NCBI GenBank assembly: GCA_022601635.1
Contig: JAJACG010000008.1
Coordinates: 1,721-65,720 of the forward strand
DNA length: 64,000 nt
Reading direction: 5' to 3'
From: Chlamydiales bacterium
GTDB lineage: Bacteria; Chlamydiota; Chlamydiia; Chlamydiales; JAAKFR01
Shown: positions 32,838 through 33,011 of the stretch, one piece after another
Layout: each line of letters opens with the position of its first letter
How positions within the stretch are numbered: the first letter of the stretch is position 1
Program-made: the position numbers and the translations under genes
Notes under the pieces: model-generated
Database searches by the model: none
Seen by the model: only the letters and a program-made list of their open reading frames with translations
Told to the model about the DNA's origin: nothing

Positions 32838-33011
32838 GTGATTGCAATTCTACCCATTCTTTTTGGTCTATTCTTTGCCCCTTGTAATGCAACAGCTCAA
32901 ACTGAAGGCACTACACATGTCAAAGCGTCATGGAAGTGCCACAAGTGCGGCCGCTTCAATATAGATGGAGTCAACTCCTGCCCCTACTGCGGCTCCCCCA
33001 AAAAACGTTAA
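32838..33011 (+). CDS. 57-aa miniprotein with a hydrophobic N-terminus and a RanBP2-type zinc-finger pattern (absent from the ORF track)
   Basis: The GTG start has a GGAG RBS 7 nt upstream. The protein reads (M)IAILPILFGLFFAPCNATAQTEGTTHVKASWKCHKCGRFNIDGVNSCPYCGSPKKR. WKCHKCGRFNIDGVNSCPYC fits W-x-C-x2-C-x3-N-x6-C-x2-C exactly. Confidence 0.55.
   Translation: MIAILPILFGLFFAPCNATAQTEGTTHVKASWKCHKCGRFNIDGVNSCPYCGSPKKR

Follow-up and report, generated by a model that had tools for sequence, protein, structure and literature searches.

Zinc fingers of the RanBP2/NZF class and the generic zinc ribbons of prokaryotes are the described domains against which the gene reported here has to be measured. 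NZF fingers contact ubiquitin through a T-F pair after the second Cys and a hydrophobic residue between the third and fourth Cys (T13, F14 and M25 in Npl4), and the single-stranded RNA-binding fingers of the ZRANB2 type carry N-x-N-[WF]-x-R-R after the second Cys. Generic prokaryotic zinc ribbons are normally cytoplasmic. Here we analyzed a 64-kb stretch of DNA from a Chlamydiales bacterium (the whole stretch is called the window below) and a 57-amino-acid (aa) open reading frame (ORF) within it, at 32838..33011 of the forward strand, for which an earlier note had proposed a membrane-anchored or secreted RanBP2-type finger. We found that this ORF is a genuine conserved coding sequence, and we consider it probable that it is a functional gene, namely a minimal member of a family of small chlamydial proteins that would be exported by Sec and that carry a Cys4 zinc ribbon at the C-terminus.

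The ORF and its start signal are as follows.
32838..33011, forward strand: coding sequence of the 57-aa ORF, with a GTG start and a TAA stop at 33009-33011 (from the ORF list, homologues and codon-position identities).
32827..32830, forward strand: Shine-Dalgarno-like GGAG, 7 nt before the GTG (read from the sequence).

The 57 codons encode MIAILPILFGLFFAPCNATAQTEGTTHVKASWKCHKCGRFNIDGVNSCPYCGSPKKR. Upstream, the frame is closed by a TGA at 32814-32816, and the codons between this stop and the GTG (AAC CAT TTC TGG AGA TTA CTA) include no ATG, GTG or TTG, so the coordinates, the GGAG at 7 nt and the claim that this GTG is the sole possible start were all borne out. Residues W32 to C51, WKCHKCGRFNIDGVNSCPYC, fit the PROSITE pattern PS01358 (W-x-C-x(2,4)-C-x3-N-x6-C-x2-C) at every fixed position, an exact match as had been claimed; it is the only one in the six-frame translation of the window, and the pattern appeared in 0 of 200 codon-block shuffles. 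The ORF was indeed missing from the ORF track supplied with the DNA, merely because of that track's 60-aa display limit. It is annotated as a gene on GenBank contig JAHZIP010013556.1, where the exact 57-aa protein has its single record, and was left uncalled on identical DNA in ENA and Logan assemblies. JAHZIP denotes O_S4.1, a sponge metagenome assembly (Haliclona oculata) belonging to a study of sponge-associated chlamydiae (PMC9666466).

Comparison with homologues indicates that the frame itself is conserved. An alignment of 27 codons from six genes showed mean nucleotide identities of 0.77, 0.75 and 0.41 for the first, second and third codon positions, the synonymous-biased pattern that the earlier note had asked for and a signature of purifying selection on the reading frame. 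The composition of the ORF (GC content 0.47, third-position GC content (GC3) 0.45) is the same as the window average of 0.46 and gives no sign of recent import. An open frame arising by chance, with a fortuitous cysteine pattern, would agree with the short length, the GTG start and the omission of the ORF by most gene callers; the empty shuffles, the dozens of homologues and their divergence biased to the third position effectively refute it, and we assign it a negligible probability. Thus a frame of fewer than 60 aa that most gene callers skip on identical DNA turns out to be a conserved gene. Two further candidates were rejected. The ORF shares its frame with the forward-strand ORFs at 33333-34256, but many stops between 33011 and 33333 exclude a fragment of one longer frame. 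A precursor of a ribosomally synthesized and post-translationally modified peptide, or of a bacteriocin, was set aside, given the lack of maturation genes in the neighborhood and an N-terminus that is a hydrophobic signal, not a leader peptide.

A word-indexed search with the 57-aa protein returned nothing but the protein itself. When 1.84 billion representatives were searched exhaustively with phmmer, 67 matches at E<=1e-3 were found, falling into small proteins that start with a signal peptide and end in the motif ASWKCxKCxxx[NS]MDGVNTCPYCGxP[KR], genuine eukaryote-type RanBP2 repeat proteins (e.g. P0003) and tandem generic zinc ribbons (e.g. P0002). A profile made from the first class collected 21 proteins of 100-135 aa at E values of 1e-21 to 1e-32, and the window protein at E 4.9e-17, a value to be read with the window protein itself in the query alignment. 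At least 25 proteins share 55-78% identity with the last 27-36 residues of the window protein, which carries the family motif [QR]ASWKCxKCxxx[NS][MI]DGVNxCPYCGxP[KR], with the invariant Trp and four Cys, and keeps all nine invariant or near-invariant family residues (W32, C34, C37, G44, C48, P49, Y50, C51 and G52). The family members include P0068-P0085 and NGX61004.1 (K940chlam9_00482), one cluster member annotated as 'Chlamydiae bacterium'. The family defined here has no Pfam or NCBIfam model; those members that can be placed taxonomically are chlamydial, and the family is apparently restricted to Chlamydiota.

Full-length members consist of a signal peptide, a beta domain of ~55 residues and the ribbon. 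Their signal peptides have a basic n-region, a hydrophobic core and AxA-type cleavage sites, e.g. between AQA and FE or between ARA and NE. The central domain has the sequence pattern PLIEQV..GVxLLI..SWL..FVLVNGEWM..EAV and is modelled by AlphaFold2 (AF2) as six strands and one helix (mean predicted local distance difference test score (pLDDT) 85); a Foldseek search with the full-length model found no significant structural neighbor for it, and no Pfam or NCBIfam model matches it. In four of six loci (L012/13, L016, L020 and L022) the full-length gene overlaps a downstream gene of ~271 aa, whose product is a signal-peptide protein of a secreted, locally expanded and unannotated family with nothing similar in PDB, Pfam or NCBIfam. 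Gene and partner occupy 6001-7111 in L012, 5001-6135 in L016, 555-1266 in L020 and 3740-4886 in L022, and L012 holds at least four tandem paralogues of the ~271-aa gene at 20-37% identity. Both the family and its partner are undescribed so far. Within the 64-kb window there is neither a partner gene nor a second copy of the family.

Minimal forms consisting of signal peptide and ribbon (54-79 aa) also occur elsewhere, as P0013, P0026/P0096 and P0065, so this combination seems to be a viable unit rather than mere debris; judged by its sequence, the window protein is best described as a minimal variant of the family like P0013, P0026 and P0065. The closest of them, P0013 (79 aa), lies directly after sohB-polA-coaE-rho (L027 5001-5240), a gene order that we take to be that of Chlamydia genomes. 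A gene for an RCC1-repeat protein (9652-10240), a domain type associated with the Ran system, lies 4.4 kb from P0013 in the same locus, a single anecdotal co-occurrence. The weakest minimal homologue, P0065 (57 aa), sits in a mobile-element context (L017 1-10174) among Tn3-type transposases, a resolvase, a Fic protein, a TraG-like coupling protein and an HTH_17 protein. A metagenome scan with the trimmed ribbon alignment gave seven loci, none closely related to the short form.

The window protein can be divided into four parts.
32838..32891, forward strand: residues 1-18, MIAILPILFGLFFAPCNA, predicted Sec-type signal peptide (from the sequence and the relatives' alignment).
32892..32930, forward strand: residues 19-31, short linker TAQTEGTTHVKAS (from the alignment, tblastn and low pLDDT).
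32931..32993, forward strand: residues 32-52, Cys4 zinc ribbon WKCHKCGRFNIDGVNSCPYCG (from family conservation, Pfam, pLDDT, and the Foldseek and PDB profile searches).
32994..33008, forward strand: residues 53-57, basic tail SPKKR (from the alignment).

The hydrophobic N-terminus pointed out in the earlier note is signal-peptide-like: a hydrophobic h-region is followed by P-C-N-A, with small residues at -3 and -1, so that predicted cleavage between A18 and T19 fits the -3/-1 rule. In relatives, canonical signal peptides occupy the corresponding part of the alignment and end in AxA-type sites, and the AF2 model of a full-length relative shows a helix at residues 2-19 followed by beta strands. 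The 13-residue linker stands where full-length relatives carry the ~55-aa beta domain, and by tblastn these relatives match only 32895-33008 of the window. In the ribbon, the presumed metal ligands are C34, C37, C48 and C51; across the family W32 is invariant and G44, Y50 and G52 are near-invariant. Residues 30-57 are modelled by AF2 with a pLDDT of ~87-89, and relatives carry P-[KR] at the position of the basic tail (KPKNG or TPRYK).

From these features we infer the following sequence of events. Translation would begin at GTG 32838, and the hydrophobic residues 1-18 would target the Sec translocon, with cleavage after C-N-A (A18). In the resulting net-cationic mature peptide of 39 residues (T19-R57), the CxxC and CPYCG beta hairpins would form two zinc knuckles, with C34, C37, C48 and C51 as ligands of a single metal ion and W32 packed on the site. 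The peptide may then serve as a small binding module located in the periplasm, in the envelope or farther out. A Cys4 ribbon behind a Sec signal peptide, outside the cytoplasm, would be an unusual placement.

Several observations weigh against a functional minimal member of the family. The locus is 100% identical, over up to 2.4 kb, across several ENA assemblies and Logan runs of the sponge project, and such identical contigs offer no variation for the ratio of nonsynonymous to synonymous substitution (dN/dS) or for orthology and synteny of the short copy. Every Pfam match of the window protein is below the gathering cutoff. Zinc sites of the Cys4 type are unusual outside the cytoplasm, and the cysteines might pair as disulfides rather than bind metal; conservation of the CPYCG knuckle speaks for a metal site over simple disulfides. 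The window copy also lacks the central domain and the ~271-aa partner and could be a decayed or truncated remnant of a full-length gene, open by chance and non-functional. The same two absences favor a remnant, as do the position of the locus amid short ORFs, in-frame stops (TAG 33684 and TGA 33897) and a dispersed palindromic repeat, the signal peptide without a basic n-region and the failure of most gene callers to call the ORF. Opposed to decay are the retention of nine of nine invariant or near-invariant residues, a ribosome-binding site at ideal spacing, a plausible signal peptide with a cleavage site and the same layout in the minimal forms of other organisms; moreover, there is no trace of the lost domain upstream, where the divergent ANT-like gene is only 75 nt away. 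The downstream ORFs, considered as a decayed 271-aa partner, show no similarity to it. Taken together, we find a remnant unlikely.

The N-terminus of the window protein weighs against export in another way, since it has no basic n-region and the positive-inside rule would permit an N-out/C-in anchor. As an uncleaved anchor, it would hold the ribbon on the cytoplasmic face of the inner membrane. No positive charge precedes the hydrophobic stretch and the net charge after it is positive; a Cys4 zinc site is chemically suited to the cytoplasm; many bacterial proteins pair a zinc ribbon with a transmembrane helix, and the phmmer matches P0030, P0034 and P0039 join W-x-C-x2-C ribbons to transmembrane segments. 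Full-length relatives, however, have classical signal peptides with basic n-region, h-region and AxA sites, and the window protein itself has a fitting P-C-N-A motif followed by T. We hold an anchor to be very improbable; the exported minimal family member is the preferred reading.

The exact PS01358 match raises a further alternative, that the ribbon is a true, eukaryote-like finger of the RanBP2/NZF type, delivered to the host and acting there as a host-interaction effector through binding of ubiquitin, Ran or RNA. The pattern is matched by 19 of 29 family members, which speaks for this explanation; the misses have S in place of the N (10/29), a substitution that speaks against it, and P0080 among them also has R for the first Cys. 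PS01358 is also found in DUF2007 (PF09413) proteins on high-GC, non-chlamydial contigs, e.g. SPKASWRCRKCGEENEGQFAACWKC, and is thus not exclusive to eukaryotes.

Profile searches favored generic ribbons over a host-type finger. The Pfam RanBP model (PF00641) scored the window protein at 15.5 bits (E 0.011), short of its gathering cutoff of 27, and the top matches were Zn_Ribbon_1 (PF13240, 22.5 bits, cutoff 25) and Zn_ribbon_3 (PF13248, 21 bits, cutoff 27), also below cutoff. At E<=1, RanBP was reported in 5 of 28 relatives (best E 8.9e-4) and the generic ribbon models in 26 and 27 of 28; precomputed annotation assigns PF13240 or PF13248 to several relatives and RanBP to none. The genuine RanBP2 repeat protein P0003, whose recovery by phmmer counts in favor of a RanBP2-type finger, scores 232.8 bits for 9 fingers, or ~26 bits per finger. 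The profile check proposed in the earlier note therefore had a divided outcome, with generic ribbon models scoring higher and a weak RanBP score present. hhalign gave the family ribbon a score of 45 with generic CPYCG ribbons (probability 98) and of 33 with RanBP2 repeats (probability 96), while the generic ribbon and RanBP2 reference sets scored 28 against each other. Going by these alignments, generic ribbons, RanBP2 repeats and the family all appear to be related, with the family nearer to the prokaryotic type.

Comparisons with solved structures gave the host-type finger some support. Searched against PDB sequences, the family profile ranked the Npl4 NZF (E 0.0032), RBM10 (0.004), TAB3 (0.0078) and TAB2 (0.03) at the top, followed by RanBP2, Nup153, ZRANB2, MDM4 and FUS fingers. 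With the AF2 model as query, RanBP2/NZF fingers dominated the Foldseek ranking (root-mean-square deviation (rmsd) 0.5-1.5 A over 24-28 residues, probability up to 0.97). Against this, no Foldseek match reached E<=0.001, the query being a predicted model; other ribbons match as well, and the top match was the archaeal ArnA ribbon (PDB 8s05_C, E 0.2). Isolated RanBP2 fingers are abundant in the PDB and isolated bacterial ribbons scarce, which skews the ranking.

The residues that mediate binding in the described fingers point away from ubiquitin and RNA. P-[KR] after the last Cys speaks for a RanBP2-type finger. Aligned to Npl4 (CQHCTFMN) by HMMER, the window protein and its family read C-x-K-C-G-R-[FY]-N; G38-R39 stand in place of the NZF T-F, and only the third contact position (Y50) is hydrophobic. 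Compared with the RanBP2 repeats (GNVNFANRDA), the window protein reads GRFNIDGVNS and has no aromatic residue or Arg after the Asn, departing from the ZRANB2-type RNA-binding motif.

Some Sec-dependent chlamydial proteins reach the host, which favors host delivery, as does the finding of the family so far only on chlamydia-like contigs, often beside expanded secreted families. Conversely, a Sec signal peptide would put the ribbon outside the bacterial cytoplasm and differs from the type III route typical of chlamydial effectors, and base composition bears no sign of recent transfer. Literature searches on RanBP-type fingers in chlamydiae or other bacteria returned nothing relevant. We consider a host-directed RanBP2/NZF finger to be of low probability. 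The broader proposal that environmental chlamydiae have a lineage-specific family of Sec-exported RanBP2/NZF-like fingers, with minimal forms such as the window protein among them, and that these exit the bacterial cell to bind host targets (ubiquitin chains, Ran or RNA, for example) seems to us quite doubtful; if true, a family of exported RanBP2-type fingers would be a first for prokaryotes, and it could represent either mimicry of the host or a prokaryotic branch related to the eukaryotic finger.

The RanBP2 class named in the earlier note thus stands in part: the W, N and P-K/R signature is there and the nearest solved structures, by profile and by predicted fold, are RanBP2/NZF fingers, whereas the Pfam score stays well under its cutoff. 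Its description of the module as essentially eukaryotic did not hold up, since generic models and hhalign prefer prokaryotic ribbons and DUF2007 proteins share the pattern. To judge from sequence, the ribbon belongs to the zinc beta-ribbon superfamily that includes the RanBP2 fingers; we see no support for membership in the RanBP2/NZF family, for a eukaryotic origin or for ubiquitin binding. A bacterial zinc ribbon does not become a eukaryote-like domain by matching the PROSITE RanBP2 pattern exactly.

Around the zinc-ribbon gene, the window contains the following features.
31980-32762, reverse strand: aminoglycoside nucleotidyltransferase-like (ANT(9)/AadA-like) gene with an AadA_C domain, divergent and 75 nt from the zinc-ribbon ORF.
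33008-33343, reverse strand: 111-aa ORF, convergent with the zinc-ribbon ORF; TTAA is common to both stop codons.
33333-34256, forward strand: three ORFs in one frame (117, 65 and 114 aa), separated by the single stops TAG 33684 and TGA 33897.
34172-35632, reverse strand: 486-aa protein with NAD-binding (NmrA/epimerase-like) and DUF2867 domains.
18446-18607, 19035-19137, 25803-25964, 29266-29373 (reverse strand) and 33889-34050: copies of a dispersed ~165-bp repeat.
42892-42942, 43019-43188 (reverse strand), 47840-47901, 61764-61924 and 61929-62089: further copies of the same repeat.

The nucleotidyltransferase, unexpected in a chlamydial genome, has ANT(9) as its best NCBIfam match (215 bits versus a cutoff of 340 bits). 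The 111-aa ORF has no match in Pfam or NCBIfam; it ends in SGCCICC, reminiscent of lipidation motifs, and is called in every assembly of the strain. The three ORFs at 33333-34256 could be a nonsense-disrupted gene. The first of them starts with a lipoprotein-like signal (LLLVSC) and the third mostly reads through a copy of the palindromic repeat; none has a Pfam match or similarity to the 271-aa partner family. For the 486-aa protein, the sole relative among 185,579 GTDB representative genomes (which do not include the window's genome) is in an Actinomycetota metagenome-assembled genome, at 43% identity.

A low-GC block at ~28000-31500 has genes with a GC content of 0.37-0.40 and a GC3 of 0.28-0.37, compared with the window mean of 0.46, and contains a DUF6829 protein (30055-31518, reverse strand), a P-loop kinase-like ORF of 245 aa and a family-less ORF of 184 aa. 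The dispersed repeat is present in at least nine full or partial copies in the 64 kb, at 67-93% identity. It is self-complementary, and the copy at 33885-34055 forms one long predicted hairpin (-95 kcal/mol, z = -12.9 versus shuffles); it resembles a palindromic element of the miniature inverted-repeat transposable element (MITE) or repetitive extragenic palindromic (REP) kind. Rfam searches over the window found three tRNAs and no other family at gathering score.

Set beside the described systems, the ribbon of the window protein appears from its sequence to combine RanBP2-like features (W, N and P-K/R) with a prokaryotic-type CPYCG knuckle. RanBP2/NZF fingers (PF00641; Npl4, TAB2/3, ZRANB2, Nup153 and RanBP2) have the identical spacing, W-x-C-x2-C-x3-N-x6-C-x2-C followed by P-[KR]. 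Unlike them, the window ribbon has the CPYCG knuckle typical of prokaryotic ribbons, and whereas they occur in cytosolic or nuclear tandem arrays, it is present in single copy behind a predicted Sec signal peptide. Generic prokaryotic ribbons (PF13240, PF13248 and DZR PF12773) share the C-x2-C-x10-C-x2-C-G spacing; in contrast to these, the window ribbon has an invariant Trp two residues ahead of the first Cys and follows a predicted signal peptide. The ribbon of DUF2007 proteins is 46-50% identical over 24-26 residues, but is joined to a cytoplasmic DUF2007 domain and lacks a signal peptide. The N-terminal ribbon of ArnA (8s05_C), which also appeared in the PDB profile search, is 42% identical over 26 columns with an rmsd of 1.2 A, a match that is not statistically significant; unlike the window protein, the ArnA ribbon belongs to a larger regulatory protein, which is cytoplasmic.

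The chlamydial hypothetical proteins such as NGX61004.1 share the C-terminal ribbon motif with the window protein and have an N-terminal signal peptide where it has a predicted one. Together with the expanded ~271-aa secreted family, this gene family offers reasonable candidates for envelope or host-interface functions in environmental chlamydiae. Unlike its full-length chlamydial relatives, the window protein has neither the ~55-aa beta domain nor the overlapping ~271-aa gene.

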